Positions 8,647 through 53,789 of a stretch of DNA of 64,000 nucleotides are shown in pieces. This DNA comes from a virus: IMG/VR virus record IMGVR_UViG_3300045988_149268, positions 1 to 64,000 of that record, one strand, 5' to 3'. The position numbers and the translations under genes are program-made. The stretch's first letter is position 1, and every line of letters starts with the position of its first letter. The notes beneath the pieces were generated by a model. That model was given only the letters and a program-made list of their open reading frames with translations, ran no database searches and had not been told where the DNA came from.

Positions 8647-8946
8647 ATGGATGAAACTCTTGTTCTTTGGACGCATGGTGGCTGGATTCCTTATGCAGGA
8701 ATTTACGCAACAGATGTTAGCCGTATTCAAGATTTTAACGTAGTGATTGATGCTTTATGTTCTTCTGCAGGGCGTGAAATGTATAATCGCATTATTGTTT
8801 CAAGTTTTAATGAAATGCAACTATCTTTTGGGCTGGGAACTACAGGAGAATTGCTTCAAAAGCTTCATGAGCTGGAAGTAAAATATGATTATACGGTAAT
8901 TGTACTTCCTCATTCAATAGAAATTGAACATTATTTGGGAGTTTAA
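8647..8946 (+). CDS. Hypothetical protein
   Basis: 99-aa ORF tightly packed between neighbours. Confidence 0.45.
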   Translation: MDETLVLWTHGGWIPYAGIYATDVSRIQDFNVVIDALCSSAGREMYNRIIVSSFNEMQLSFGLGTTGELLQKLHELEVKYDYTVIVLPHSIEIEHYLGV

Positions 8947-8947
8947 G

Positions 8948-9748
8948 ATGCCAAAATTTACAAAATGGGAGCAGGCAATGATGTGCTTGCGACCTCAATA
9001 TAAAACAAAAAATTTTACTTATGAAGAAGCAAAATTATATCTGTTGAACACCGGCTTTGGTAATTTTACTAAAACTTCATGGAATGCGGCAATTAAGCAT
9101 AATATTATTAAAATTGATAATAATAATACTGCTTATTTTCTTTCAGAAAAAAATGAAGCAATTGATTCAGATTGGACGACTTCGCATCGTAAATATTTTA
9201 TATGCGAGCAAGATAAAACAAAAAAAGGATATGGAGATTTCTTTACAAAAGATGAGTTAATTTCTATTAACAATATTTATTTTAATTGGAAGTCAACTTG
9301 TGAGACATATCAATATTATGGATTTCGTAGACCAAATTTGCCTGAACCTATTAGCGAAGGTTTACCTAGCGCACTTTTTGGCTGGGCACGAACAAATAAT
9401 ATGCCACTTGAAAACATTGATGGTTCAGCAGATCTTGTCGATACAGTTAATGGGGATGCTATTCAAATTAAAGGTATTTCTGCTTATGATGAAAAAGATT
9501 GCGGTCCCACTTCATTTGGTCCTAATTCTAAATTTGACAGATTAATTGTTTTGTATGTTCGCCTGGACGAAGATAAAGTGTATTTTTATGAATTTCCAGA
9601 TGCTCAAGATTATAAGAAATGGAAAGTTAATGGAAATCAAACTGTTGCAGATCAACAATTTCAAAATAAACGACCAAGATTAAATTTAATTCCAATCTTG
9701 AAGGAGAGAGGGATTCAACCTTTCTTTGTATATAATTTTAATGTTTGA
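8948..9748 (+). CDS. Hypothetical protein; candidate restriction endonuclease partner of adjacent C5-MTase (unproven)
   Basis: ATG 8948 with RBS tgggagtttaag; immediately upstream of a DNA cytosine-5 MTase; no confident nuclease motif. Confidence 0.4.
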   Translation: MPKFTKWEQAMMCLRPQYKTKNFTYEEAKLYLLNTGFGNFTKTSWNAAIKHNIIKIDNNNTAYFLSEKNEAIDSDWTTSHRKYFICEQDKTKKGYGDFFTKDELISINNIYFNWKSTCETYQYYGFRRPNLPEPISEGLPSALFGWARTNNMPLENIDGSADLVDTVNGDAIQIKGISAYDEKDCGPTSFGPNSKFDRLIVLYVRLDEDKVYFYEFPDAQDYKKWKVNGNQTVADQQFQNKRPRLNLIPILKERGIQPFFVYNFNV

Positions 9749-9773
9749 CTTATTATAAAATTTTTGATATAAT
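9745..9773 (+). promoter_or_regulatory. Sigma-A type promoter TTGACT-N17-TATAAT
   Basis: Consensus hexamers, upstream of MTase gene. Confidence 0.55.
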
Positions 9774-9796
9774 TATAAAAAAGGAGCTGAGAAAGA

Positions 9797-21446: not shown

Positions 21447-22901
21447 ATGACGTATATTATGATTGGTATTATTGTGCTCGCTGTTATTGCTGTTGCTACC
21501 CTTGCCAGTATGAGCTATGTTAAGGCTCCGCCGGATCAGGCGTTTCTAATTTCTGGTCCACGCAAGGATATGAAGATTATCTCTGGTCGAGCAGGTTTTA
21601 GAGTGCCATTTGTTGATCGACTTGATAAGTTGTATCTTGGCATTATTGGCGTAGATGTAAAGACCAAGAACTCTGTCCCAACTGCCGAATATATTAATGT
21701 ATATGTTGATGCAAACGTGAATGTTTGCGTTGGGAAGTCTAATACACTTATGGCGCTTGCGGCGAAGAATTTTCTTAATCAAAAGCCAGATGCCATTTCT
21801 CGTAAAGCACAGGAAGTCCTTGAGGGCAATATGCGTGAAATTGTTGGTCAGATGAAGTTGACTGATATGGTAACTGACCGCAAGGCTTTTGCAGAAAAGG
21901 TTATGGAAAATGCCGCGCCTGATATGGAAAAGCTGGGTCTTGAAATTATTTCTTTCAATATTCAGAATTTTAGTGATGAAAATAATGTCATTAATGATCT
22001 GGGTATTGATAATGTTGAGCAAATTAAGAAGAACGCAGCAATTGCTAAGTCTGATGCAGAACGTGATGTCGCTATTCAGAAGGCAGAAAACAAGAGAAAG
22101 GCTAATGAAGCTCAGGTTGAAGCTGCTACTCAGATCGCGCAACAAAATACCGCTCTTGACATTAAAACCGCAGAATTGAAGGCATCGAGTGAAGTTAAGC
22201 GTGCTGCTGCAGATATGTCGTATGATATTCATAAGGCAGATCAGCAAAAGGAACTTGATGTTGCTCGCACCAATGCGCAGATTGCTCAGGCAGAGCGTCA
22301 GGTTGAATTGAAGAATCAGGAAATTGCGCTGAAGGAAAAGGAGCTTGATGCTCTTGTGCGCAAGCAGGCTGACGCAGATTTGTATGCGGCGCAACAGAAG
22401 GCTCAGGCTGATTTGGTGCGTCGTCAGAAGGAGGCCGAAGCTAAGGCTTATGAGGAAATTCAGCGAGCTAAGGCCGCGAAGGAATCTATGGAACTTGAGG
22501 CTGAAGCTCGTAAGATTGTCGCGGAAGCTGATTTGATTACTGCGCAGAAGGCTGCGGAAGGTATTCGTGCTAAGGCGGAAGCTGAAGCAGAAGGAATTCG
22601 TCAGAAGGGCCTCGCCGAAGCTGAAGGTATTGATAAGAAGGCAGAAGCGCAGAAGAAAATGGGCGAAGCATCTGTTTTGGAAATGTATTTCGCTGCGATG
22701 CCGCAGATTGCACAGGCTGTTGCCGCACCTCTTGCTAATGTTGATTCTATTACCATGTATGGTGATGGTAATCAGGCAAAGATGGTGCAGGATATTACGA
22801 CTACGATTAATCAGATTATGAAGGGCGTTAATGACGCTACTGGTGTTGATTTGAATAGCGTTCTTGCTGGTTATATCGGTGGAAGAATGGCTGAAAAGTA
22901 A
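21447..22901 (+). CDS. Flotillin-like SPFH/band-7 domain protein (FloT/YuaG-like); GC-richer
   Basis: N-terminal TM, SPFH core, long Ala/Glu/Lys/Gln-rich coiled-coil (flotillin repeats), C-terminal region. Confidence 0.65.
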   Translation: MTYIMIGIIVLAVIAVATLASMSYVKAPPDQAFLISGPRKDMKIISGRAGFRVPFVDRLDKLYLGIIGVDVKTKNSVPTAEYINVYVDANVNVCVGKSNTLMALAAKNFLNQKPDAISRKAQEVLEGNMREIVGQMKLTDMVTDRKAFAEKVMENAAPDMEKLGLEIISFNIQNFSDENNVINDLGIDNVEQIKKNAAIAKSDAERDVAIQKAENKRKANEAQVEAATQIAQQNTALDIKTAELKASSEVKRAAADMSYDIHKADQQKELDVARTNAQIAQAERQVELKNQEIALKEKELDALVRKQADADLYAAQQKAQADLVRRQKEAEAKAYEEIQRAKAAKESMELEAEARKIVAEADLITAQKAAEGIRAKAEAEAEGIRQKGLAEAEGIDKKAEAQKKMGEASVLEMYFAAMPQIAQAVAAPLANVDSITMYGDGNQAKMVQDITTTINQIMKGVNDATGVDLNSVLAGYIGGRMAEK

Positions 22902-23915: not shown

Positions 23916-25411
23916 ATGGCTGATTATAGCGTAAAAGATATAAAAACGCTGGAAGGTATTGAAGCTATTCGGCTTAGACCCGGTATGTATATTGGTTCAG
24001 TCGGGCCAGAAGGTGTTCGTCATATTACACTTGAAATTATTTCAAATGCTGTTGATGAGTATCTTAATGGTGCGTGTTCAGAAGTTCATGTCACTATTGA
24101 AAATAATAAAATTCAAGTTTCAGACAATGGTCGTGGTGTTCCTTTTGGTAAAGCAAAAGATGGCTCTGAAACACTTATTAATATTTATACAAAACTTCAT
24201 ACTGGCGCAAAATTTGATAGCGAAGGAAAAACTGGATATAATACATCTGGTGGTATGAATGGCGTAGGCGCAAAGGCAACGAATGCTCTATCATCTTGGT
24301 TCCATGTAACATCTATTCGAGATGGACAAATAGCCAATGCTTGGTTTGAAAAGGGTAAACTTAAAGAGTTTAAGACTGAAAAAACCGATGCGAAAAATAG
24401 TGGAACTACTGTTGAGTTCATTCCTGACGAAGAAATTTTTAAAGAAGGGACAGAACTCGACCCTGTTGCTTTGAAAAAGCAGTTGCAGGAACTTGCTTTT
24501 TTGTCTCCTGGTCTAAAATTTGTTCTATGTATCAATAGCAAGTGTGAAGAAATTTCAAGTAAAAATGGTCTTCTTGATTACTTGGATTACCTTTCCAAAG
24601 ATAAAGATGTATTGACATCAAAATTTTTTGCAGAGGCAAACGAGAATAGAATTGGCGTTAAAGTCGCTTTGCAGTATGTTAATGCGTATAGTGATGTCTA
24701 TAAACTATATACAAATAGCATTCCGAATAGTGGCGGCACGCATTTGACTGGTTTTAGAACCGCTTTAACACAATCTATTAACGTTTATGCCAGAAATAAA
24801 GGTTTTCTAAAAGAAAAGGATGAAAATTTTTCAGGAGAAGATTTAAAAGAGGGTCTAATTCTTGTCCTTTCTTTAACGATGCCAGATCCTGTTTTCTCTG
24901 GACAAACTAAAGATACTTTATCTTCAAGCGAGGGCCGCACCATTGTGCAGCGTTTGTGTGCTGCGAGTCTTGAGACATGGCTTAGCACGAATGAAAAAGA
25001 TGCAAAAGCAATTATTAATAAGGCACTCTTGGCACGAAAGGCAAGAGAAAATGCGAGAAAAGCAAAAGAAACAGTAAGAAATACTTCTAAGGCTTCTCGT
25101 ATCACTCTGCCTGGCAAATTGGCAGATTGTTCAAGCAAAAAGAGGCTTACGGATTGTGAGATTTTTATCGTTGAAGGCGACAGCGCCGCAGGTTCAGCTA
25201 AAGAAGCACGTGATCGTAATACTCAAGCAATTCTGCCAGTCCGAGGTAAAATTCTTAATGTATTAAAAGCGGATTTGCATAAAGCGATGAGCAATGCCGA
25301 AATTCAAAGTATGATTACCGCTTTTGGCCTTGAGATTAAAGATGGTAAAATTGTTTTGAACGAAGATAAATTACGCTATGGTAAAATTATTATTATGGCT
25401 GATGCAGACGT
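23916..25411 (+). CDS. Type IIA topoisomerase ATPase/TOPRIM subunit (GyrB/T4 gp39-like), exon 1
   Basis: GHKL ATPase N-terminus, TOPRIM EGDSAAGSAK, ends in MADADV (conserved DADVDGSHI interrupted); exon ends with T as required for group I 5-prime splice site. Confidence 0.75.
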
Positions 25412-26460
25412 CAACTAAAAATCGGCGTATGAAAAACTTTTCGCATATCAAGCGGGTCAGAATCTATTAATTATATGTAGAGGGTTCTCATATAATAATA
25501 GAAGATGGCTAACGGGAAACCCTAAACTGAAAAGCAAGGGAACCCCGTGGGAAACAAATATTAATCCATCTTCTAAGGAGATGGGAAAATGATTGGAATT
25601 TATAAAATTACCAATAAAATATCAGGAAAATCTTATATTGGTTAGTCTAATGATATTGAAAGAAGATTTAAAGAGCATTAGACAATAGGCAATAAAAGTA
25701 GAATTCCTGTTGATATCGCTATTCAAAAATATGGAAAAGAATCATTCACATATGAAATAATTGAACTTTGTTAGATTGAACAATTAAATGAAAAAGAAGA
25801 ATACTGGATTAAATTTTATGATTCATATAACAATGGTTATAATTGTAATCCTGGCGGAAATCAATCTTCAATAGGAGAAAACAATGGACGAGCGAAATTA
25901 ACTATTGAAGATGTAGAAATTATTCGGCAAGCCTACGCCACGCATAAAAAACAAAGGGAAATATATGAAAAATTTAAAGATAAAATTTCATTTAATTATT
26001 TTCAAAATGTTTGGGCGGGCAAAAGCTGGTCGCACATAATGCCAGAAGTTTTTACAGAAGAAAATAAACATTATTATATTTATGAAAATAGTAAAAACGG
26101 CAATGGTTTTAATTCTTAGTTTTCAGATGAAGAAATTGTTTATATTAGACAAAGATATGTGAATGAAAGTGCAAAACAGATATATAACGACTATAAAAAT
26201 AGAATTAAATTTCAAAGTTTTTAGGCAATATTATGGGGTCGTTCATATTCTGATTTGCCATTATACAAGAAAAAAGAAAAGCGATGGATTAATATTTGAA
26301 CCTGTATCGACTATCTCCTAAGCCTTATGGGCAGGAGAGTAGGGCTACTATTGATACGTAGTCTGGTTTTAGGAAACGAAGCCAGTTAAATGCCGAAATG
26401 GTTTCCTCTCTTTATGAGAGTAAAAGATAGTCAGCGCTCATAGAAATATGAGAATAAGTG
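25412..26460 (+). mobile_element. Group I intron interrupting topoisomerase subunit gene, carrying GIY-YIG homing endonuclease
   Basis: Exon1 stops right after DADV; downstream frame resumes with DGSHIRILFFTFIWKFCPELIEKGYIY; intron ends with G; internal free-standing ORF with own RBS. Confidence 0.7.
25589..26299 (+). CDS. GIY-YIG homing endonuclease (intron-encoded; 3 in-frame TAG)
   Basis: GIYKITNKISGKSYIG-Q-SNDIERRFKEH motif; RBS ctaaggagatggg. Confidence 0.7.
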
Positions 26461-26860
26461 TGATGGAAGTCATATTAGAATTTTGTTTTTTACCTTTATT
26501 TGGAAGTTTTGTCCAGAGCTAATTGAAAAAGGATATATTTATGCCGCGGTCCCGCCTCTATATCGAGTTATTAAAGGCACTAAATCTATCTACATTAAAG
26601 ATGATAATGCTCTTGCCGAATACCGTAAGAAACATAGTGGAGAAAAATATGAATTGCGTCGTTTCAAAGGATTGGGCGAGCAAAGTGTAGAGGAACTTGA
26701 AGAAAGCACAATGTCTCCTGCTACAAGAACTCTTAAACAAATTACTATGGAAGATGCCATCGCAGCGAGTCAAGTTTTTAACAACCTAATGGGTGAAACT
26801 GTAACGTTGCGTAAACAGTTTATTGAAAAAAATGCTTGGAGGGCAAACGTAGATGTCTGA
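26461..26860 (+). CDS. Type IIA topoisomerase subunit (GyrB-like), exon 2
   Basis: DGSHI..PELIEKGYIYAAVPPLY..FKGLGEQSVEELEESTM matches GyrB C-terminal region. Confidence 0.7.
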
Positions 26861-27140
26861 TTATATTAAGAAAGTTCCAACAGATGACTATCTTACTTGG
26901 ATAAATAAAAAGGGCGAAGTCTGCCCTCGGATGCCTAAAGATTGGAAAGATGAAGAGAAATATGGTAAGGACTATTTTGGAGCCTTTATGAATGCTGTAT
27001 GTATTAAATTAAACTCCTATGAAGAATATTATAAAAATCCTCTTCTAATGATTTCAGAAATGGTTAAGCTCCGTAGTGAGAACGAAAGACTCACTAAGGA
27101 AAATGATAGACTAATGCAGAGGTTGAAGAAACATGGATGA
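26853..27140 (+). CDS. Hypothetical protein
   Basis: 95-aa ORF overlapping upstream stop. Confidence 0.45.
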   Translation: MSDYIKKVPTDDYLTWINKKGEVCPRMPKDWKDEEKYGKDYFGAFMNAVCIKLNSYEEYYKNPLLMISEMVKLRSENERLTKENDRLMQRLKKHG

Positions 27141-27318
27141 ATCAATATTCTGTCCTAACTGTAAAACTGGTAAAATTGTAATAACACAGTTTAAAATAAT
27201 TATTCAAGAGATAAATAAAAATCAATTTCATATCATCGCAGATGCAGAATGTGAAAAATGTAAAACGCAATATAAGTTGGAAGGTGATTGCAATTCAAAA
27301 TATTTGGAAACATTTTAG
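27133..27318 (+). CDS. Small zinc-ribbon protein
   Basis: CPNCKTG...CEKCKTQ. Confidence 0.4.
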   Translation: MDESIFCPNCKTGKIVITQFKIIIQEINKNQFHIIADAECEKCKTQYKLEGDCNSKYLETF

Positions 27319-27448
27319 AAAAATTCAAACGCATAGAAAATGGGTTCGATATTATTGTTTTAAATGCGGAATTCCTTGGCAGGGGATTAAACATGATCTA
27401 TCTAAATATTCCCCAACAGAATTTTTTGAAAGCGTAAAATATTATTAG
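27242..27448 (+). CDS. Hypothetical protein (overlaps previous ORF in another frame; one of the two may be spurious)
   Basis: 68-aa ORF with CFKCG motif. Confidence 0.25.
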   Translation: MQNVKNVKRNISWKVIAIQNIWKHFRKIQTHRKWVRYYCFKCGIPWQGIKHDLSKYSPTEFFESVKYY

Positions 27449-27547
27449 GGAACTTCATCTCCAATTAATGCTGCAAAAGCAGACAAGGGATATTCTGATG
27501 CTTGGTTTCATCATAAAGGAAGGAATAAACATCATTATGAATATTGG

Positions 27548-27862
27548 ATGGACAATTTTGATGATGGCGGACAAAATATCATTATGCCATTTAAATATTG
27601 GGTTGAATTAATTTGTGATTATCTTGGAGCTAGTCATGCTTATAATGACAATGATTTTTCTTATTATAAAGAGTTTAAATGGTGGGAAGAAAAAAGTAAA
27701 CATTGCGCCATGAATCCAGCATTAATTAAAGCAACAACGGCAGTATTTGAAGCTTTGATGCGACAAGAAAATGCTTATTATCTTGATTTTTATTATCATC
27801 CGGATAAACTGTTAAGTAAAGCTTGGCTTAAACAGTATTATGACAAATATGTCAATTTATAA
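27548..27862 (+). CDS. Hypothetical protein
   Basis: 104-aa ORF. Confidence 0.45.
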   Translation: MDNFDDGGQNIIMPFKYWVELICDYLGASHAYNDNDFSYYKEFKWWEEKSKHCAMNPALIKATTAVFEALMRQENAYYLDFYYHPDKLLSKAWLKQYYDKYVNL

Positions 27863-28343
27863 TATTTATACAGATGGTAGCGCTACCAAAGAGCAATCGG
27901 GCTTTGGTTTTGTTGTCATAGACATAAATCAGACTATTATTCATATGGTTTCACAAGTTCTTCCTCCCTCTATTACAAATCAACAAGCTGAACTGCTGGG
28001 AGCAATTGCTGGATACCATTGGATAAAAAATAATATAAAAAATGTTTTTTAGATTAATATATATTCTGATAGTGCGTATTTAGTAAACTGCTATATGCAA
28101 CAATGGTATAAAAAATGGATTAATAACGGCTGGATTAATTCAAAAGGTCAAGATGTTGCCAATAAACCACTATGGTTAGAATTATTGCCTGCATTTAATG
28201 ATGAAACTGTTAATTTTTTAAAAATTGCTGGACATTCAGGAAAAGTATATAATGAATTGGCGGATGCCTTGGCAACACATCGACTTGACAAAGTAAAAAA
28301 AATATATTATAATATTGAAAGAGAAAAGGAGTTAAATGAATGA
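27840..28343 (+). CDS. rnh: Ribonuclease H (1 in-frame TAG)
   Basis: YTDGS...TNQQAELLGAI...IYSDSAYLVNC...KIAGHSGKVYNELADALA catalytic DEDD pattern; track pieces 27840-28052 and 28095-28343 share frame. Confidence 0.75.
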
Positions 28344-28573
28344 AAGAAAACATTATTCAAACACCAATAGTAGAAGAAACCGAACAATCATTTTTGGACT
28401 ATTCTCTTTCTGTAATTACTGATAGAGCTATTCCATCTGCGGAAGATGGATTTAAGCCTGTTGTGAGACGTATTCTTTATGATATGTCTGATAATGGTTA
28501 TGCAAGTAACAAACAATATGTTAAATGCGCTTCTCCTGTTGGCGATACAATGGGTCGTTTTCATCCTCACGGT
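28340..28573 (+). CDS. Type IIA topoisomerase DNA-cleavage subunit (GyrA/T4 gp52-like), exon 1
   Basis: N-terminus SFLDYSLSVITDRAIPSAEDGFKPVVRRILY..GRFHPHG(D); interrupted inside conserved HPHGD-SSIYDAL. Confidence 0.75.
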
Positions 28574-29485
28574 AAAAACTAACTATTGCCGTGGCTAAAT
28601 CGCGGAAAAAATCTGGAAGGCTGAGATGCTAATCAGAGGTGAAGGCTATACAAAGTATGGCCAGCCGCAACGCATAGAGAGTGAAAAGATATAATCTCTC
28701 CACGAGGCCGCGATAATTTGGTCAGAATTTTTTAAAGTATCTATTTGATAATTTCATACTTAATGGGGATGAAAAATCACCCACATTAAGGAGGAATTAT
28801 AATGATTGAATATAATCGACACGTTTTTGATACAATAAACACAAATGAAAAAGCATACTGGTTAGGATTTATCGTCGCTGATGGATATTTAAATGATAAT
28901 AAAAATATGTTAAGAATAAAACTCGGCGATAAAGATAAACGTCATTTAGAAAAATTCATTAAATTTTTAGATGGCGATGACTCAATGCTAAAAAAAGAAA
29001 TCAACAGTATAACTGGGAATGTTTAGTGGTATGTATCAACTTACGCGCCACAAATTCATGAGGCTTTAAAACAATTAAAAGTAGAGCAAGCAAAGAGTGG
29101 GAAAGAACATATCCCTCCTATCAGCTCCTGTTATTATAGAGATTTTATCAGAGGGTTGTGGGATGGAGATGGATTTATTAGAGAGAATTTAAGTGGTATT
29201 GGATTAGTTGGCTCTTATGAGTGTTTAGCTTTTGTTTAGGAAGTTTTTGAAACGGAGTTAAAAATTCAACCACTAAAAATTTATTCTCATTGCAATACGT
29301 ATAAAATTGAATATCGCTCTACAAAAAAATCAATTCCATTAATTATGAATTATTTATATCAAGATAAGGATGTAGCACTTGATAGAAAAATGGAATTAGC
29401 TGACCGAATTAAAAAGATATGCTAAACTTACATAAATAAAAATGTAAGAATTATAGGATAAAAAGCCTATAAGGTAATAATATTG
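28574..29485 (+). mobile_element. Group I intron in gyrA-like gene carrying LAGLIDADG homing endonuclease
   Basis: Exon1 ends HPHG (T at junction), exon2 begins DSSIYGALVGIAQ; intron ends in G. Confidence 0.7.
28802..29425 (+). CDS. LAGLIDADG homing endonuclease (intron-encoded; 2 in-frame TAG)
   Basis: Two LAGLIDADG motifs: LGFIVADGYL and LWDGDGFI; RBS aaggaggaattataatg. Confidence 0.7.
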
Positions 29486-31627
29486 GATAGTAGTATTTAT
29501 GGCGCTTTGGTTGGTATCGCTCAGCCATGGACAATGCGGTATCCATTGATTGATTTTCATGGCAATTGTGGTAGTCGTGATGGTGATGGGCCTGCTGCAT
29601 ATCGTTATACAGAATGTCGATTGGCTCCAATCGCAGAAGCGACTTTGGAAGATATTAAAAAGAATACGGTAGATTGGCAAACTACATATGCAGAAACAGA
29701 AAAAGAACCTGTTTATCTCCCGGGGCGGTTTCCGAATCTTTTGTGCAATGGAACAACGGGTATTGCTGTTGCAATGGCTTGTTCTTTTGCTCCACATAAT
29801 CTAAATGAAGTAATTGACGCAGCAATTTTTTATATGAATAATAGAGATGCTACCGCAGCAGATTTATGTGATTATGTTAAAGGTCCAGATTTTCCCACTG
29901 GCGGTGTAGTTATTAACAAAAATGAGCTAAAAACCGCATATACTACTGGTAGAGGAAAAGCTCGTATCCGCGGTGAATATATTGTAGAAACTGGAAGAAC
30001 ACATGATACTCTTGTATTTACAAGCATTCCATACAAAGTTTCAAAAGAAACCTTGGCAGAAGAAATCGACAAACTCTGTGAAACAAAAGAGATAGAAGGA
30101 ATTGCAGAAATTCGCGATGAAAGTAATAAAAAAGGCGTCCGATTTGTAATTGAAATTCAAAAAGGATATAGCGCCGAGGTTGTAGCGAATAAGTTATATA
30201 AATTAACTGATTTGGAAACTACTTATAGTTTTAATCAAGTTGCTCTTGTAAATAAAGCTCCAAAATTAATGACACTAAAAGACTTAATTCAAGAATATGT
30301 AAAACATCAAGAAGATGTTTTCAATAGACGTTGTAAATTTGAACTTGAAAAATTGAATACACGTATTCATATTCTACAGGGTCTTGTAAAAGCATCTGAA
30401 AATATTGATAAAATTATTCAAGTTATTAAACGTTCTGAAGACACGGCAAGAGCAAGAAATAATCTAATGGATGTATATCTTTTTACTGAGGCGCAGGCGC
30501 AAGCTATTTTGGATATGAAGTTAAGTAAATTAGCTCATATTGAAAAAGTAGCTTTGGAAAGAGAACTTGAAGATAAACAATCCACAGCGGAAAAACTACT
30601 TGTTATTTTAAACGATCCCGCTGTTGCACAAAAAACTTTGTGTGAAGAGTTGCTTAGTTTTAAATTAAGATTCGGCGATGCTCGTAGAACTAAAATCGAA
30701 CAAATTAATATTACACCAGAAGAAAAAGAAGTAATTGAAATTCAATCAGAAGATTGCGTAGTTTTGGTTACTGAAACTGGAAATATTAAGAGAATGACAA
30801 CGAGTGCATTTAAAGCACAAAAAAGAAATGGGCAAGGTGTAAAAACACAAAACGATATTACACATAGCATAATTTCTACCAATACTATTGATGCGTTAAT
30901 GGTATTTACAAATTATGGTAGAGTTTATAAAGTTTCAGTAAATGATATTCCCGCAGGTAATAATGTTTTTAGAGGCGTGCCAATTAATACTCTTGTTTCA
31001 ATGGACGCCAAAGAAAAATTCATTGCAATTGCTTCTGTTGAGCGTGGGACAAAAGAAGGGCAATATGTATGGTTCGCCACGAAAAATGGTCTTATTAAGA
31101 AAACCGCATTGTCTGAATATGCCGGAGTTAAACGTAAAACAGGTATTACAGCAACGAATATAAAAGATGGCGACGAACTTGTGAGTGTTTTTGTCGCTCC
31201 TGATTGTCAGCTTATGTTCTTTACTGAAAATGGAATGAGTCTTCGTATCAATGGTAAAGACATTGGCGCAACTGCGAGAACAAGCATCGGTGTTAAAGGT
31301 ATCGCATTAAAAGATGATGACAAAACCGCGGTTGTTATTCCTTGTTTTAATGAAACTGAAGTTATTTTGGCTTTTGATAATGGAACAATAAAACGAGTGC
31401 CGATTAAAGAATTTACAATTCAGAATCGAGCTGGTAAAGGTTTAATCTGCGCTAAAAATTGTAAAATTATTGATGCTGTTGCTATTAATGCTACGGATAA
31501 AATATTTGTTGCTGGGACAATATCTAATATTTGTCTTGCAGTATCAGAAATTACTTTGGGCTCTCGTGCTTCAACTGGAATTAAAGCAATTAAAAATGGT
31601 GACATTATCGCCATTACAAAGGTATGA
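29486..31627 (+). CDS. Type IIA topoisomerase GyrA-like subunit, exon 2
   Basis: DSSIY...RYPLIDFHGNCGSRDGDGPAAYRYTECRL... GyrA breakage-reunion domain and beta-pinwheel-like C-terminus. Confidence 0.75.
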   Translation, partial: DSSIYGALVGIAQPWTMRYPLIDFHGNCGSRDGDGPAAYRYTECRLAPIAEATLEDIKKNTVDWQTTYAETEKEPVYLPGRFPNLLCNGTTGIAVAMACSFAPHNLNEVIDAAIFYMNNRDATAADLCDYVKGPDFPTGGVVINKNELKTAYTTGRGKARIRGEYIVETGRTHDTLVFTSIPYKVSKETLAEEIDKLCETKEIEGIAEIRDESNKKGVRFVIEIQKGYSAEVVANKLYKLTDLETTYSFNQVALVNKAPKLMTLKDLIQEYVKHQEDVFNRRCKFELEKLNTRIHILQGLVKASENIDKIIQVIKRSEDTARARNNLMDVYLFTEAQAQAILDMKLSKLAHIEKVALERELEDKQSTAEKLLVILNDPAVAQKTLCEELLSFKLRFGDARRTKIEQINITPEEKEVIEIQSEDCVVLVTETGNIKRMTTSAFKAQKRNGQGVKTQNDITHSIISTNTIDALMVFTNYGRVYKVSVNDIPAGNNVFRGVPINTLVSMDAKEKFIAIASVERGTKEGQYVWFATKNGLIKKTALSEYAGVKRKTGITATNIKDGDELVSVFVAPDCQLMFFTENGMSLRINGKDIGATARTSIGVKGIALKDDDKTAVVIPCFNETEVILAFDNGTIKRVPIKEFTIQNRAGKGLICAKNCKIIDAVAINATDKIFVAGTISNICLAVSEITLGSRASTGIKAIKNGDIIAITKV

Positions 31628-33598: not shown

Positions 33599-33609
33599 AA
33601 GAGGTGCCT

Positions 33610-34593
33610 ATGCCAGCTATAATTTTAGGAATTATTTGCGGCTTACTCGTTTGTTGTAACTGCTTTTTAATTTTTCGGATTGGGAAAAATATAAAAGAAG
33701 AACAAAAAACTAAAGAAGCCGTAAATTATTAGAATAATAACTTACAGTAGTTAATAACTAATTGTAAGGATTTAGAAGAAAAACAAGATGATTTGTATGA
33801 ATATAAAAAATATTTGGATTCATAGGTGTCCGCGGCCAAAGAAGAATATAATATGCTTCAATAGTATTGTGAACACGCAAATCAAGAATATCATACAAAA
33901 ATATCGTTGATGGAATCTTCACAAAAGACAAAAGAATAGGAATTAATTCAAAAATATAATATTTTATGTGAAGAACAAGAAGAGCGTTTAGGAGAAGTCT
34001 CACGCGACTTTCTAACAGAATGGCGTAAAATAAGTGAAAAACTTTTAAATGATAAAAACGCTTTGGCGGCACAAGTTGAAGAGGAACGCGCCACTTTAAA
34101 TGCTGCTATTGATGCTGCAAAAAGGGCATAGCTTGAACAAATTAAAAAAGATTATTATAAAATTATGCTCGATTCAGTCGCGTAGAAAGATATTGAGCAT
34201 TTGCGCTCTATTGAACCATTATTAACTAGACCAGAGTCATTAAATAAAATTATTTGGAAAGTTTATTATGAAAAACCAGTCTCTGATATGATTGGTAGAG
34301 TTGTCGGCGACACAACTAAAACGGGTATATATAAAATAACGCATTGCGCGAGTGAAATGGCTTATGTTGGTTAGGCTGTTGATATTGCTTCACGTTGGCG
34401 TCAACATATAAAGCGAGGACTTGGTGCAGAAACGCCAACACAAAATAAATTATATCCAGCAATGAAAAAGTTTGGGCCAGAAGCATTTATGTTTGAAATT
34501 CTTGAAGAATGTGATAGAAGTAAATTAGATGAACGTGAAGATTATTGGCAAGATTTTTACCGAGTTAAAGAATTTGGATATAGTATAAAATAA
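33610..34593 (+). CDS. Membrane-anchored coiled-coil protein with C-terminal GIY-YIG nuclease domain (8 in-frame TAG)
   Basis: N-terminal TM IILGIICGLLVCC, long coiled coil, C-terminal GIYKITHCASEMAYVG-Q-AVDIASRWRQH GIY-YIG motif; frame open from ATG 33610 to TAA 34591 except TAG; not in ORF track because of TAGs. Confidence 0.55.
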
Positions 34594-50109: not shown

Positions 50110-51855
50110 ATGACTACGGTGTTGAAAAGAAACGGCGATTATGTACCATTTGATAAAAATAAAATTATTTCTGCAATTAGTAAAGCATTTTTAGATGTTG
50201 ATGGTTGTTTGTATGAAACAGATACAATTACTGATATTGCCGTAGATATTGAAAGATATTGTTCAGATAAAGATATTATTTCAATTGAATAGATTCAAGA
50301 TAAAGTAGAAGAATATCTAATGCGCTCAGAAAGACCTGATGTTGCTCGTGCTTATATTCGTTATCGCTATAAAAGACAAATTGCCAGATCGGCGAGCGAT
50401 ACTTTTATGAAAGCAATAGGAGAAAAGCTCAATGGCGCGAATATTGAGAATCAAAATGCCAATGTTGATGAACATTCTTTTGGTGGTCGCAAAGGCGAGG
50501 CCGATAGTATTTTAATGAAGAAATATGCACTTGACAATATTGTGTCAGATATGGCTCGTCGCAATCATGAAAATAATAGAATTTATATCCATGATTTAAG
50601 TGATTATGCAGTTGGCTCACATAATTGTCTATCTATTCCTTTTGATCATTTGCTGGCGGATGGATTTAATACAAGACAAACTGATATTCGTCCTGCCAAT
50701 AGTATTAATACTGCTTTTCAGCTTTTAGCTGTAATTTTTCAACTTCAATCACTTCAACAATTTGGTGGAGTAAGTGCGACGCATCTTGATTGGACGATGG
50801 TTCCTTATGTAAGAAAAAGTTTTAGAAAACATTATATTGATGGTTTAAAATATATTGAAAATATAAATGACGAAGAATTATTTCAACATATTCCAATGAC
50901 CGCTGGAATTCAAGATGGAGAATATAAAATTTATAAAAGTGCATATGATTACTCAATGGAAATGACAGAACGTGAACTTCAACAAGCTGTTGAAGGTATG
51001 TACCATAATCTTAATACTTTACAATCACGTTCTGGTAATCAATTACCTTTTACTTCTATTAATTATGGCACTTGCACTTTACCAGAAGGTAGAATGGTTA
51101 TCAAGGCTTTGCTCGAAGGCTCATTAAAAGGCATTGGTAAGCATCATAGAACACCAATTTTCCCTTGCGGTATCTTCCAAATTGGAGAAGGAATTAATAA
51201 ACGACCTGGTGATCCAAATTATGATTTATTTAGACTTGCTTTAAAATCAACCGCAAAAAGATTATATCCAAATTATGCTAATATTGACTGGTCTGGTAAT
51301 ATTGGATATGATCCCAGCCGACCCGATACTTATTTCAGCACGATGGGGTGCCGCACGGCAAATGGTTGGGATATAAATGGTCTTGGCCAGCAGAAAGATG
51401 GCCGTGGTAATATTTGTCCAGTGACGATCATTCTTCCTACTCTCGCCATGGAAGCAAAAGAAGGAATTGACTTCTTATTTCCTGTTGACGAAACTCCTGG
51501 CTATATTGATACTTTTATGAAAATTTTAAATAAAGCTATTGATGATGCTAAAGATATGTTGTTAGAACGTTTTAATTATATTTGTTCTCAAAATCCAGAA
51601 TCTGCAAGATTTATGTATGAAAATGGATTAATGGCTGGTTATATCCCAGAAGAAGGCATCATTAGCGCTTTAAAACACGGCACATTAGCGATCGGGCAAT
51701 TGGGACTAGCTGAAGCACTTCAAATTCTAATTAATTGTAATCAAACAACAGAAGAAGGAATGATTTTAGCTAAAAGAATTGAGTCTCTATTTAAAACAAA
51801 AGCAAGTGAATTTAAAGAACAGTATAAATTAAATTTTGGTGTATATTATACGCCT
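50110..51855 (+). CDS. nrdD: Anaerobic ribonucleoside-triphosphate reductase NrdD, exon 1 (1 in-frame TAG)
   Basis: ATP-cone VLKRNGDYVPFDKNKI, class III RNR core; track ORFs 50110-50292 and 50320-51891 share the frame; exon ends ..GVYYTP. Confidence 0.75.
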
Positions 51856-52818
51856 AAGATTGAATTGGGCGTCGTACAAGTAATTGTATGAAAAAATAAC
51901 CTTGTTAAACGGGCAATCGTAATAAGATGGTAAGAAAGCCTAAACCCTCATGGGCATGGTAATCCCGTAGGATAAAATCTATTGGACAGAAGTGAAAATT
52001 TGTGTTTCATAAAAATTTATGTTATAATAGAACAAGAAAGTGAGGTTTTATTATGGCACGAAGAAAAATGACAGAGAGATTAATTAATCGCAACGATATA
52101 AAAGAAGAGATGCGATTAATTAAAGGAAGTAACACAGATTATATCACTCCAACCGGAAATATATATAAAGATTATGGCAATAATATGTTTTATCATAAAT
52201 CTGTTTTTCCTAATAAAAATAATGGATATTTGTATTGTGGAATTACTTATATTAATGGATAGCGACAACGAAGAGTGCATATCTTAGTTGCAGAAGCATA
52301 TTTGCCAAATCCAGATAATTTACCTATTGTATTGCACTTAGATAATGATAAAAAAAATTGTAATATAAATAATTTAAAATGGGGAACCGTAAAAGAAAAT
52401 ACTTAGCAAGCATTCAATGATAACCTACAAATTAATGATAAGAGTTGGAAAGACTCTCAGTCTATTCATGTGTGTAGTTTTGATTTACAAGGAAATTTGT
52501 TAAATAAGCATGGGTCTATCGGAGAAGCATCTCGAATGTTGCAAGTAACAAAAACAACTATTTTAAATTAGTGTAATCATAATTTAAAGACTAAACCAAG
52601 ATGCGGTTACTATTTTAGGTATTTATCTGAATATGAGTCCAAGGGTTTTGTTCTCTAACGACTATCGAAAATATAGTTATAGAGAAATACTATAATGAAT
52701 AAATGAGTAGAGTAGGCAATAGCCGAAAGACAAGGCTCTTATTATTTGGTAACAGAATAATAAGATGATAATATAGTCTAACCCTCTTAAAAATATCGGG
52801 AAACCGAAGGTAGAAGTG
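51856..52818 (+). mobile_element. Group I intron in nrdD carrying HNH homing endonuclease
   Basis: Upstream frame ends ..NFGVYYTP then stop after 12 codons; downstream exon resumes AENLCYTS.. giving conserved TPAENLC junction; exon1 ends with T, intron ends with G; internal promoter-like aaaaatttatgttataat. Confidence 0.65.
52053..52658 (+). CDS. HNH homing endonuclease (intron-encoded; 3 in-frame TAG)
   Basis: HLDNDKKNCNINNLKWGTVKEN HNH motif; frame open through TAGs to TAA ~52656. Confidence 0.6.
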
Positions 52819-53303: not shown

Positions 53304-53789
53304 ATGAAATATGCAGGTATTATATATAACGATGTTGCCGCAGCGCCAGGAATTAGTCTTTCATTTTACACCCAGGGTTGCCCCAATCACTGCCCTGGGT
53401 GTCATAATCCTTAGACTTGGGATTTCAATGGAGGCAAAGAATTTACACCAGAAGTGTTAGATTCTATCGTAACTGGGCTTCACGCTCATGGGATTAATCA
53501 TTCCCTTTGTATTATGGGTGGAGAACCATTGTGCCCAGAGAATCAATTTTTAACGCGATTGATTATTGATACGGTTAAACAGAAAAGTCCATTTACTCCA
53601 ATTTATGTATGGACTGGATATACATATGAAGAATTAAAAACAATGACTTCAAATCATTTAACCGCCATTCTTTCATCTATTGATTTTTTGATTGACGGCC
53701 CATATAAACAAGAACTTAGAGATGTTACGCTACCAATGCGAGGCAGTTCAAATCAAAGAATTATTGATATGAGAAATATTGACAATTAA
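53304..53789 (+). CDS. nrdG: Anaerobic RNR activating protein NrdG (radical SAM; 1 in-frame TAG)
   Basis: CPNHCPGC = CxxxCxxC cluster; MKYAGIIYNDVAAAPGISLSFYTQGC N-terminus typical of NrdG; track piece 53454-53789 in same frame. Confidence 0.7.

Follow-up and report, generated by a model that had tools for sequence, protein, structure and literature searches.

Predicted group I introns with TAG-containing endonuclease genes in three early-type genes of a gut phage with TAG recoded to glutamine

In the td intron of phage T4, the open reading frame (ORF) of the homing endonuclease I-TevI lies in the P6 loop and its 3′ end overlaps P6a and P7; loss of the hairpin over the ribosome-binding site of I-TevI causes a td splicing defect, by way of ribosome occupancy of the intron core (PMC3073962). 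Introns of the td type characteristically have an in-frame stop shortly after the 5′ splice site (PMC3073962; PMC3984707). In gut phages of the jumbo (Jug) and crAss-like groups, nrdD, terL and polymerase genes are also interrupted by group I introns (PMC12880540; PMC7886860), and splicing of the Jug-phage introns, related nrdD introns included, has been confirmed by metatranscriptome reads (PMC12880540). In the TGA-recoded Agate phages, the endonuclease of an early-gene group I intron preferentially uses TGA, and the authors read this to mean that in-frame stops should block endonuclease production until late infection (Borges et al., bioRxiv 10.1101/2021.08.26.457843). Here we analyze a 64,000-nucleotide (nt) stretch of viral DNA, referred to throughout as the window, from a gut phage with a genome of ~166 kb in which TAG is read as glutamine. 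Three of its genes, namely a gyrB-like gene (type II topoisomerase B subunit), a gyrA-like gene and nrdD, are interrupted by insertions denoted I1, I2 and I3, each of which carries a homing endonuclease gene (HEG1, HEG2 and HEG3, respectively).

The reading that we favor, and consider probable, is that mobile group I introns split these three early-type genes, and that TAG codons, present most likely because the endonuclease genes have escaped the purging of TAG from early genes, delay the synthesis of full-length endonuclease. All statements on splicing and timing were derived from sequence, and the splices are conceptual. Related viral contigs used for comparison are denoted L001, L002 and so on, and the contrast in TAG content was followed over about 85 related loci. 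One contig, from ENA ERZ5855723 (L124; scaffold_14, 165,752 bp, Peruvian gut sample; run SRR1761717, DNA only), differs from the window at 9 positions in 13,685 overlapping bases (99.9% identity) and extends 6.6 kb upstream of it, window position 1 being position 6622 of L124. A megablast search of the intron region against GenBank phages gave no match.

The three interrupted genes are organized as follows:

23916..25411, plus strand: gyrB-like exon 1, ending ...DADV at U25411 (GAC GU); 0 in-frame TAG
25412..26460, plus strand: intron I1, 1049 nt, ending at G26460; td-like group I
25589..26299, plus strand: HEG1, ORF of a GIY-YIG homing endonuclease, 236 codons, in the P6 loop
26461..26860, plus strand: gyrB-like exon 2, U GAU GGA ..., DGSHIRILFF...
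28340..28573, plus strand: gyrA-like exon 1, ending HPHG at U28573; 0 TAG
28574..29485, plus strand: intron I2, 912 nt, ending at G29485; group I without P2
28802..29425, plus strand: HEG2, ORF of a double-motif LAGLIDADG endonuclease, 207 codons, in the P8 loop
29486..31627, plus strand: gyrA-like exon 2, DSSIYGALV...; 0 TAG
50110..51855, plus strand: nrdD exon 1, ending ...YYTP at U51855; one TAG (codon 61, IEqIQD)
51856..52818, plus strand: intron I3, 963 nt, ending at G52818; td-like, IA2-type
52053..52658, plus strand: HEG3, ORF of an HNH endonuclease, 201 codons, between P6 and P7
52819..53301, plus strand: nrdD exon 2, AENLC... to the RVTGY glycyl-radical end

Under the standard code, the gyrB-like ORF meets a stop two codons past ...IIIMADADV, and the conserved DGSHIRILFFTFIWKF... 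resumes 1049 nt downstream. The gyrA-like ORF is broken after ...GRFHPHG, with DSSIYGALV picking up 912 nt later, and nrdD after ...GVYYTP, with AENLCYTS resuming 963 nt further on. In each gene, one junction satisfies the reading frame together with an exon-final U and an intron-final G; in gyrB an alternative in-frame junction has exon 1 ending at C25412, but the intron would then end in U. Related contigs read uninterrupted through the junctions, and the conceptual splices are therefore exact. That is, DADVDGSHIRILFFTFIWKF is continuous in the gyrB of L001 and L002 (78-79% amino acid identity over 631 residues), the gyrA of the same two contigs is intact at the I2 site (59-61% amino acid identity), and the I3 site is uninterrupted in most of the 34 nrdD loci of relatives. 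Homologues of each intron were found at five loci: for I1, in gyrB at the same site or two codons downstream, with L117 among the five; for I2, at gyrA HPHG/D, where they were located via the LAGLIDADG protein; and for I3, at nrdD site 582/583. Inteins were considered and rejected, as TAA or TGA stops occur in the exon frame and no intein family is among the Pfam matches. A sequence-only reading of the window had placed the three interruptions at these sites with sizes of ~1.05, ~0.9 and ~0.96 kb, had noted the exon-final U and intron-final G at every junction, and had proposed that intron-less homologues would define the insertion sites; the first two points are borne out, and the comparison with L001/L002 and with most of the 34 nrdD loci did fix the sites.

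The group I identity of all three introns is well supported by the pairing patterns of the RNA. The guide strand of P1 tracks synonymous or positional differences in the exon in both the I1 and I3 families, and the splice-site U.G pair is kept throughout the variants. In the I1 family, exon and guide read ACGU/GCGU, CGGU/GCCG and UGGU/GCCA, at two neighboring insertion sites two codons apart. In the I3 family they read ACGCCU/GGGCGU, ACUCCU/GGGAGU and ACACCU/GGGUGU, so that three pair types (AU, GC and UA) occupy one position. P1 of I2 (CACGGU/GCCGUG) is unchanged in 5 sequences.

The cores of the three introns can be laid out to different degrees of completeness. In I3, the helices are P1 (51850-51855 / 51867-51872), P2, P3 (51900-51905 / 52730-52735), P4 (51909-51913 / 51964-51968), P7 (52660-52665 / 52773-52778), P7.1, P7.2, P8 and P9, and P3, with 1 compensatory pair, crosses the invariant P7 in a pseudoknot. 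In I2 they are P1 (28568-28573 / 28588-28593), P3 (28600-28605 / 28708-28713), P4-P6, P7 (28672-28676 / 29418-29422), P7.1, P8 (28717-28723 / 29402-29408), which encloses the ORF, and P9 hairpins; here P3 (2 compensatory pairs) crosses a P7 that is 100% paired. In I1, P1 (25408-25412 / 25424-25428), P4 (ACGGG/CCCGU) and P7 (26309-26315 / 26426-26432) are accompanied in the 3′ half by P7.1, a branched P7.2, P8 and P9, and P4, P5 and P6 too have covariation support. A textbook P3 5′ strand beside J3/4 was sought in I1, and no consistent partner was found. Comparison with more distant family members places the 5′ strand of the P3 equivalent directly after the guide sequence instead (25434-25441 / 26397-26404; in the window copy, 8 pairs flanking one mismatch). 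In these distant members the helix reads CUCAC/GUGAG, CCUAC/GUAGG, GCCAU/GUGGC, CCUGCU/AGCAGG, UCUUUU/GGAAGA and UCCUUU/GGAGGA, and the cross-pairing control for it is not clean, as related members have U/A runs in common. The order in the I1 family is accordingly P1-P3-hairpin-hairpin-J3/4-P4, not P1-P2-P3-J3/4-P4, and both hairpins covary (window, L080, L084, L099, L104, L027 and L033).

To quantify the helices, the ORFs were removed and 3-6 sequences were aligned for each intron. The proportion of paired cells was 98.2% in the 3′ half of I1 (16 two-sided changes; slid controls 33-46%), 90.1% in I2 (17 two-sided changes; slid controls 35-40%) and 99.0% in I3 (10 two-sided changes; slid controls 35-49%), and in no case did any of 500 shuffles score as high, bearing in mind that the structures were derived from the same sequences and that the absolute figures therefore favor the models. 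The two-sided base-pair changes are the informative part of these statistics. A covariance model of the 3′ half of the I1 family alone, run over 78 kb, ranked the td intron of T4 first among non-self matches (E = 0.012), with nrdB fifth; model and td have CGACUAUCCC...GGGAGUAGGG in common. The same model found 25 further gene-splitting insertions in relatives (E 9e-17 to 0.0024), among them insertions in gyrB at ~569 and ~421 and at several positions in nrdD, and in the members checked the match ended at, or adjacent to, the point where the host frame resumes.

Introns of subgroup IA2 are marked by two additional domain-7 hairpins, P7.1 and P7.2, and by an extended P9 (PMC4227781). In I1 and I3 alike, P7.1 and P7.2 lie between P7 and P3′ and show compensatory changes, td having this order as well in the model alignment, and in both introns the strands of P7 are GACUAU/AUAGUC and those of P4 ACGGG/CCCGU. 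I2 has just one of these hairpins (P7.1) and no P2. Thus, the assignments of I1 as a td-like variant group I intron, of I2 as a compact group I intron that lacks P2 and has its ORF in the P8 loop, and of I3 as a canonical td-like (IA2-type) intron are each well supported by sequence comparison. The likeness of I1 to T4 td extends to a GIY-YIG ORF in the P6 loop that ends at P6′/P7, a hairpin over the ribosome-binding site, a stop near the 5′ splice site, the P7 strands and the start of P7.1/P7.2 (CGACUAUCCC...GGGAGUAGGG). I3 resembles td in the order P1-P2-P3-J3/4-P4...P7-P7.1-P7.2-P3′-P8-P7′. The differences from td lie in the hosts, which here are topoisomerase genes and nrdD rather than td, in the two hairpins of I1 between the P3 5′ strand and J3/4, and in the scores obtained with the Rfam group I model (14.6 bits for I3 and 16.6 for the I1 homologue in L117, versus 40 for td).

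That model, RF00028, is a single group I model with a gathering score of 50 bits. At this score the whole window gave no intron match, only two tRNAs being matched. When each intron was searched by E-value, I3 aligned with 14.6 bits (E = 0.67), nothing usable was obtained for I1, and nothing for I2; the model aligns over its full length to the I1-type copy of L117, a 282-nt intron without an endonuclease gene (16.6 bits, E = 0.054). As a control, the proven self-splicing T4 td and nrdB introns were found to score 40.3 and 35.7 bits. Because these also fall short of 50 bits, the threshold is insensitive for phage IA2 introns; the window introns do score far lower than td and nrdB. The Rfam search for a group I core, which had been suggested as a check that could refute the introns, formally goes against them at 50 bits but is uninformative, given that td and nrdB fail it as well; the core was instead found by comparison, and the guide covariation, the P3/P7 pseudoknot and the compensatory changes uphold the claim that the insertions behave as group I introns. 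By analogy with the T4 td intron, we infer that they would leave the pre-mRNA by guanosine self-splicing.

Each insertion contains one long ORF when TAG is read as sense, and each ORF can be assigned to a different endonuclease family, as had been proposed, with scores above the Pfam curated cut-off: GIY-YIG for HEG1 (PF01541, 35.3 bits, cut-off 22.6), LAGLIDADG for HEG2 (PF14528 LAGLIDADG_3, 31.9 bits, cut-off 22.5; motifs LGFIVADGY and LWDGDGFI) and HNH for HEG3 (PF13392 HNH_3, 33.6 bits, cut-off 24.8). The catalytic domain of HEG1 shares 36% identity with the one in T4 I-TevI (E = 1e-10). HEG2 had no match among PDB sequences, and a blastn search with the I2 core against phages returned short matches, none with an annotated intron. 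By family the three ORFs are homing endonucleases, and cleavage activity is predicted. In-frame TAGs number five in HEG1 (codons 19, 31, 62, 177 and 212), two in HEG2 (codons 75 and 146) and three in HEG3 (codons 70, 118 and 173). Relative to their homologues the ORFs show no gaps, and the ratio of nonsynonymous to synonymous divergence (dN/dS) is 0.08-0.20 (0.20 for HEG1, 0.14-0.15 for HEG2 and 0.08-0.09 for HEG3), while synonymous divergence reaches ~1.3. Over their 201-236 codons, in a genome of 34% GC, they are free of TAA, TGA and frameshifts. Given this purifying selection and the absence of other stops or frameshifts, the ORFs are to be regarded as functional genes, whose TAGs must be decoded.

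The ORFs are fitted closely to their introns. The Shine-Dalgarno sequence of HEG1 lies within a hairpin whose stem varies in sequence among three homologues, with pairing retained, and the HEG1 stop codon stands directly before P6′/P7. The last codons of HEG2 form P8′, J8/7 and P7′. In the I3 family the AUG start codon of HEG3 is covered by a hairpin, and its stop codon precedes P7 by 1 nt. In addition, the exon frame is closed shortly after each 5′ splice site, by a TAA 5 nt inside I1, a TAA 7 nt inside I2 and a TGA 34 nt inside I3. The hairpin over the HEG3 start (52026-52062) includes a perfect TATAAT; a transcript starting just 3′ of it would lose the 5′ strand of the hairpin and free the AUG, like the late promoter of T4 I-TevI. 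When the sequences upstream of these ORFs were scanned for sigma-70 promoters, the scan gave nothing beyond chance and did not call this TATAAT, with the proviso that the consensus may not be that of the host.

These data bear on an alternative in which the host genes are genes in pieces, split by the endonuclease genes into halves that are translated apart and assemble, or in which the ORFs are decaying pseudogenes and TAG is a true stop. A ribonucleotide reductase gene of an Aeromonas phage is reportedly split by a mobE-type endonuclease gene in such a way that its halves are separate. The lack of a group I match at the curated Rfam threshold would agree with this alternative, as would the GTG or TTG that precedes exon 2 of nrdD and gyrA by 3 nt. 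However, the breaks fall inside the invariant motifs DADV/DGSH, HPHG/D and TP/AENLC, the junctions offer neither a ribosome-binding site nor an ATG for exon 2, and the flanking RNA helices, exon-guide pairing included, are conserved with compensatory changes. Decay of the ORFs is likewise contradicted by the low dN/dS, by the uninterrupted frames at 34% GC and by the alignment of TAG with glutamine described below. On the strength of the motif breaks, the covariation and the purifying selection we reject both versions, which we regard as extremely improbable.

The intron families of the relatives vary widely in their sites and content. The nrdD gene is interrupted at at least nine sites (about residues 173, 219, 301, 310, 352, 413, 418, 429 and 582; L017-L037), and a single gene can hold as many as three insertions (L033). 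In gyrB (L080-L117) the sites are near residues 421, 499/501 and 569, and in gyrA (L104) near residues 78 and 106. The HNH ORF of L036 is frameshifted. Together with the endonuclease-less copy in L117, this ORF and the variety of sites fit the cycle of gain, decay and loss expected of homing elements. As in the Jug and crAss-like phages, nrdD is a hot spot for insertion. Unlike the window phage, Jug phages use the standard code and have no layer of recoding, and the text of that paper makes no mention of topoisomerase genes, the word 'gyrase' having 0 occurrences in it (PMC12880540).

The genome is TAG-recoded, in agreement with the sequence-only reading, and the codon stands for glutamine (code 15 type). 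Treating TAG as sense raises coding density from 0.67 to 0.86. Where aligned TAG positions were checked, homologues without TAG have glutamine, e.g., YIGqS/YIGQA, GNVqWYVS/GNTQWYVS and all three sites of HEG3; one aligned site is lysine in L100. About 3 kb upstream of the window, L124 holds an array of 17 tRNAs, including anticodons CUA and UUA. The tRNA-CUA (L124 3592-3681, 90 nt) scores 59.8 bits with the Rfam tRNA model. Its U1, its weak first pair and its G73 are identity features for glutaminyl-tRNA synthetase, and its charging with glutamine is predicted. No suppressor tRNA was found in 60 related loci, which span early-gene regions only. The tRNA-UUA (L124 3810-3881) has no visible use; most ORFs still end in TAA.

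Within this recoded genome, TAG is distributed very unevenly. The three intron ORFs have 10 TAGs in 644 codons, versus 1 in 2164 codons of the spliced hosts (0 in gyrB, 0 in gyrA and 1 in nrdD; Fisher p = 3e-6). Out of frame, TAG is equally common in both (11.3 versus 9.5 per kb). Base composition is therefore no explanation, and the depletion in the hosts is frame-specific. When TAG is counted as a share of the glutamine-type codons, gene classes of the window compare as follows:

12 replication and nucleotide-metabolism genes, including the three spliced hosts: TAG 1, CAA+CAG 228, share 0.00
3 intron endonuclease ORFs: TAG 10, CAA+CAG 20, share 0.33
2 free-standing endonuclease-like genes: TAG 14, CAA+CAG 17, share 0.45
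Lysis and late-type genes: TAG 22, CAA+CAG 56, share 0.28

The share in the glycosyltransferase block is 0.36. The share in the intron endonuclease ORFs is distinct from that in the replication genes (p = 1e-9). All five endonuclease-like genes of the window are TAG-rich, the two free-standing ones being:

16168..17028, plus strand: homing-endonuclease-like gene, PHROG HNH/homing endonuclease families; 6 in-frame TAGs, neighbors TAG-free
33604..34593, plus strand: gene whose product has a long, coiled N-terminal part and ends in a GIY-YIG domain; 8 in-frame TAGs, neighbors TAG-free

Across the clade, gyrB has 0 TAGs in 53,437 codons (87 loci) and gyrA 2 in 63,575 (84 loci), i.e., 2 in 117,012 together, and intron ORFs at five different topoisomerase sites have 60 in 4,859, with the caveat that these sequences are related and a nominal p-value overstates their independence. 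In the nrdD exons of relatives, TAG is present in a third of loci. The claim that the endonuclease ORFs carry 3, 2 and 3 in-frame TAGs hence stands for HEG2 and HEG3 and must be raised to five for HEG1, and that of essentially TAG-free host exons is accurate for gyrB and gyrA, with a single TAG (codon 61) to be allowed for in nrdD.

The near-absence of TAG from topoisomerase and replication genes implies their translation at a time when TAG is still a stop. It could be argued, on the contrary, that there is no temporal gate at all and that TAG means glutamine throughout infection, owing to immediate expression of the tRNA-CUA or to tolerance by the host, in which case the endonucleases would be made whenever their mRNA is present. 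The location of the tRNA-CUA, in an array on the same strand as and upstream of early-type genes, is in line with this possibility, and so are the single TAGs in nrdD, nrdG and some other metabolic genes of the window and its relatives. Yet the replication genes of the window have 1 TAG among 229 glutamine-type codons and the topoisomerase genes of the clade 2 among 117,012 codons, the out-of-frame frequency of TAG in these genes is normal, and such avoidance is hard to explain unless early genes are translated while TAG terminates. We consider the absence of a gate very unlikely.

Our favored reading can be put as a sequence of events. A ribosome arriving from exon 1 would halt 5, 7 or 34 nt into the intron, at a TAA, TAA or TGA, respectively, and never at a TAG. 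In the early phase, with TAG acting as a stop, translation of the endonucleases would end at codon 19 (HEG1), 75 (HEG2) or 70 (HEG3), leaving the catalytic fold incomplete. Early termination would also keep ribosomes off the 3′ end of each ORF, which abuts or forms part of the ribozyme core (P6′/P7 in I1 and I3, P8′/P7′ in I2). The hairpin over the ribosome-binding site in I1, or over the start codon in I3, would be a second obstacle. After the phage tRNA-CUA has become active, full-length endonuclease could be made, and alleles without the intron in co-infecting relatives could then be cut. The TAG codons would in this way act as an additional block tied to the code switch. In T4, a hairpin in the RNA and a late promoter delay the endonuclease; here, in-frame TAGs linked to the switch would be an added element. 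Since the ORFs hold in-frame TAGs, the full-length endonucleases are expected to need TAG suppression, and their synthesis is plausibly late. The earlier statement that the endonucleases are limited to the recoding-competent phase can be kept insofar as full-length products need TAG to be read as sense; that this phase is late is deduced.

Several points weigh against this reading. With regard to the introns, all three stay below the RF00028 gathering score and I2 has no RF00028 match whatsoever, while in I1 the strand order of P3 is non-textbook, with two hairpins before J3/4, and the helix in the window is weak. With regard to decoding, the 90-nt tRNA-CUA has a long extra arm, like Ser, Leu and Tyr tRNAs, and this is not the usual form of a tRNA-Gln. 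With regard to TAG usage, the intron endonucleases are on a par with late genes (33% versus 28%, p = 0.64), and the majority of nrdD intron ORFs in relatives are without TAG. TAG-free endonuclease ORFs occur in the apparently recoded L018, L027 and L037 (HNH) and in L100 (GIY-YIG); in L018 (3995-5809) and L037 (3764-5578) the pattern is even reversed, nrdD exon 1 having 4 and 2 TAGs, respectively, and the HNH ORF 0.

The last of these observations also enter into a more austere explanation, namely that TAG, CAA and CAG are interchangeable, that only genes expressed before the switch are kept free of TAG, and that the endonuclease genes have drifted to an equilibrium share with no regulatory role. 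The share in the intron ORFs (0.33) does lie among those of the late genes (0.28; p = 0.64), the glycosyltransferase block (0.36) and the free-standing endonuclease-like genes (0.45), recoded relatives retain the same endonucleases in TAG-free form, and the positions of TAG differ among homologues. Nonetheless, some TAGs are common to homologues despite a synonymous divergence above 1, at codons 19 and 31 of HEG1 (with L098) and at codon 146 of HEG2 (in 4 of 6 sequences). This explanation is also predicted to leave the same sequence pattern as a gate would, and even under it full-length endonuclease would be absent before suppression. We regard it as possible and rather unlikely.

The opposite proposal is that selection has kept the in-frame recoded stops, in intron-encoded and free-standing endonuclease genes alike, as a translational gate. 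Such a gate would leave the ribozyme core free of ribosomes during early splicing and postpone DNA cutting; it would be the code-switch counterpart of the hairpin over the ribosome-binding site of I-TevI and would have arisen independently in TAG and TGA lineages. We put this forward tentatively and with some doubt. The suggestion in the sequence-only reading that the TAGs are a device for limiting toxicity and for coupling homing to late co-infection is not demonstrated, in view of a TAG share equal to that of late genes (p = 0.64) and of TAG-free homologues in recoded relatives. Because the endonuclease genes sit at the TAG level of lysis genes, their TAG content most likely reflects escape from the selection that purges TAG from early genes. 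Delayed synthesis of the endonucleases would follow as a consequence of that content, and adaptive gating beyond relaxed constraint finds no support in the sequences.

The idea of a late-only endonuclease is already published for the TGA-recoded Agate phages, of which the window is the TAG/glutamine counterpart. That work is said to have appeared later in Nat Microbiol in 2022. Both cases concern an intron endonuclease that lies in an early gene of a recoded gut phage and favors the recoded stop. Here too, the recoded stop is significantly more frequent in the endonuclease ORFs than in the early, TAG-poor genes that house them. The two differ in the reassignment, TAG to glutamine here versus TGA to tryptophan there, and in extent, as the window has three introns, three endonuclease families and two free-standing genes, with the contrast followed over the related loci. 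TAG-free homologues in recoded relatives have no counterpart in the passages of the preprint considered here (Borges et al., bioRxiv 10.1101/2021.08.26.457843). What is notable in the window is that the pattern is found in three introns and two free-standing genes of one genome, with clade-wide support from the topoisomerase genes.

Other genes of the region were noted in passing. Between gyrB and gyrA (27840-28343) lies an RNase H-like gene, identified by eye, which is split by one in-frame TAG. A single TAG is tolerated in the early region by this gene, by nrdD and by the gene downstream of nrdD (53304-53789, probably nrdG). A restriction-modification pair (Pfam RE_Bsp6I and DNA_methylase, from precomputed contig annotation) is located in the early region at window positions 8900-10765 (L124 15569-17386); in TAG-as-sense ORF calls each gene has one in-frame TAG, and these ORFs may begin 5′ of the true start codon. 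The pair is directly preceded by a PARG-like gene and a PhoH gene, and an SPFH/flotillin-like gene, judged by eye only, lies at 21447-22901.

These results open no new class of mechanism. They do carry a practical warning, in that standard-code gene callers together with the Rfam gathering threshold would mis-annotate all three of these essential genes as fragments, and they provide exact splice junctions, structural models backed by covariation and natural TAG-free homologues for experiments. For the biology of the phage, the window offers a multi-copy example of how a code switch may partition a genome: five endonuclease-like genes behave as late genes amid TAG-free early genes.

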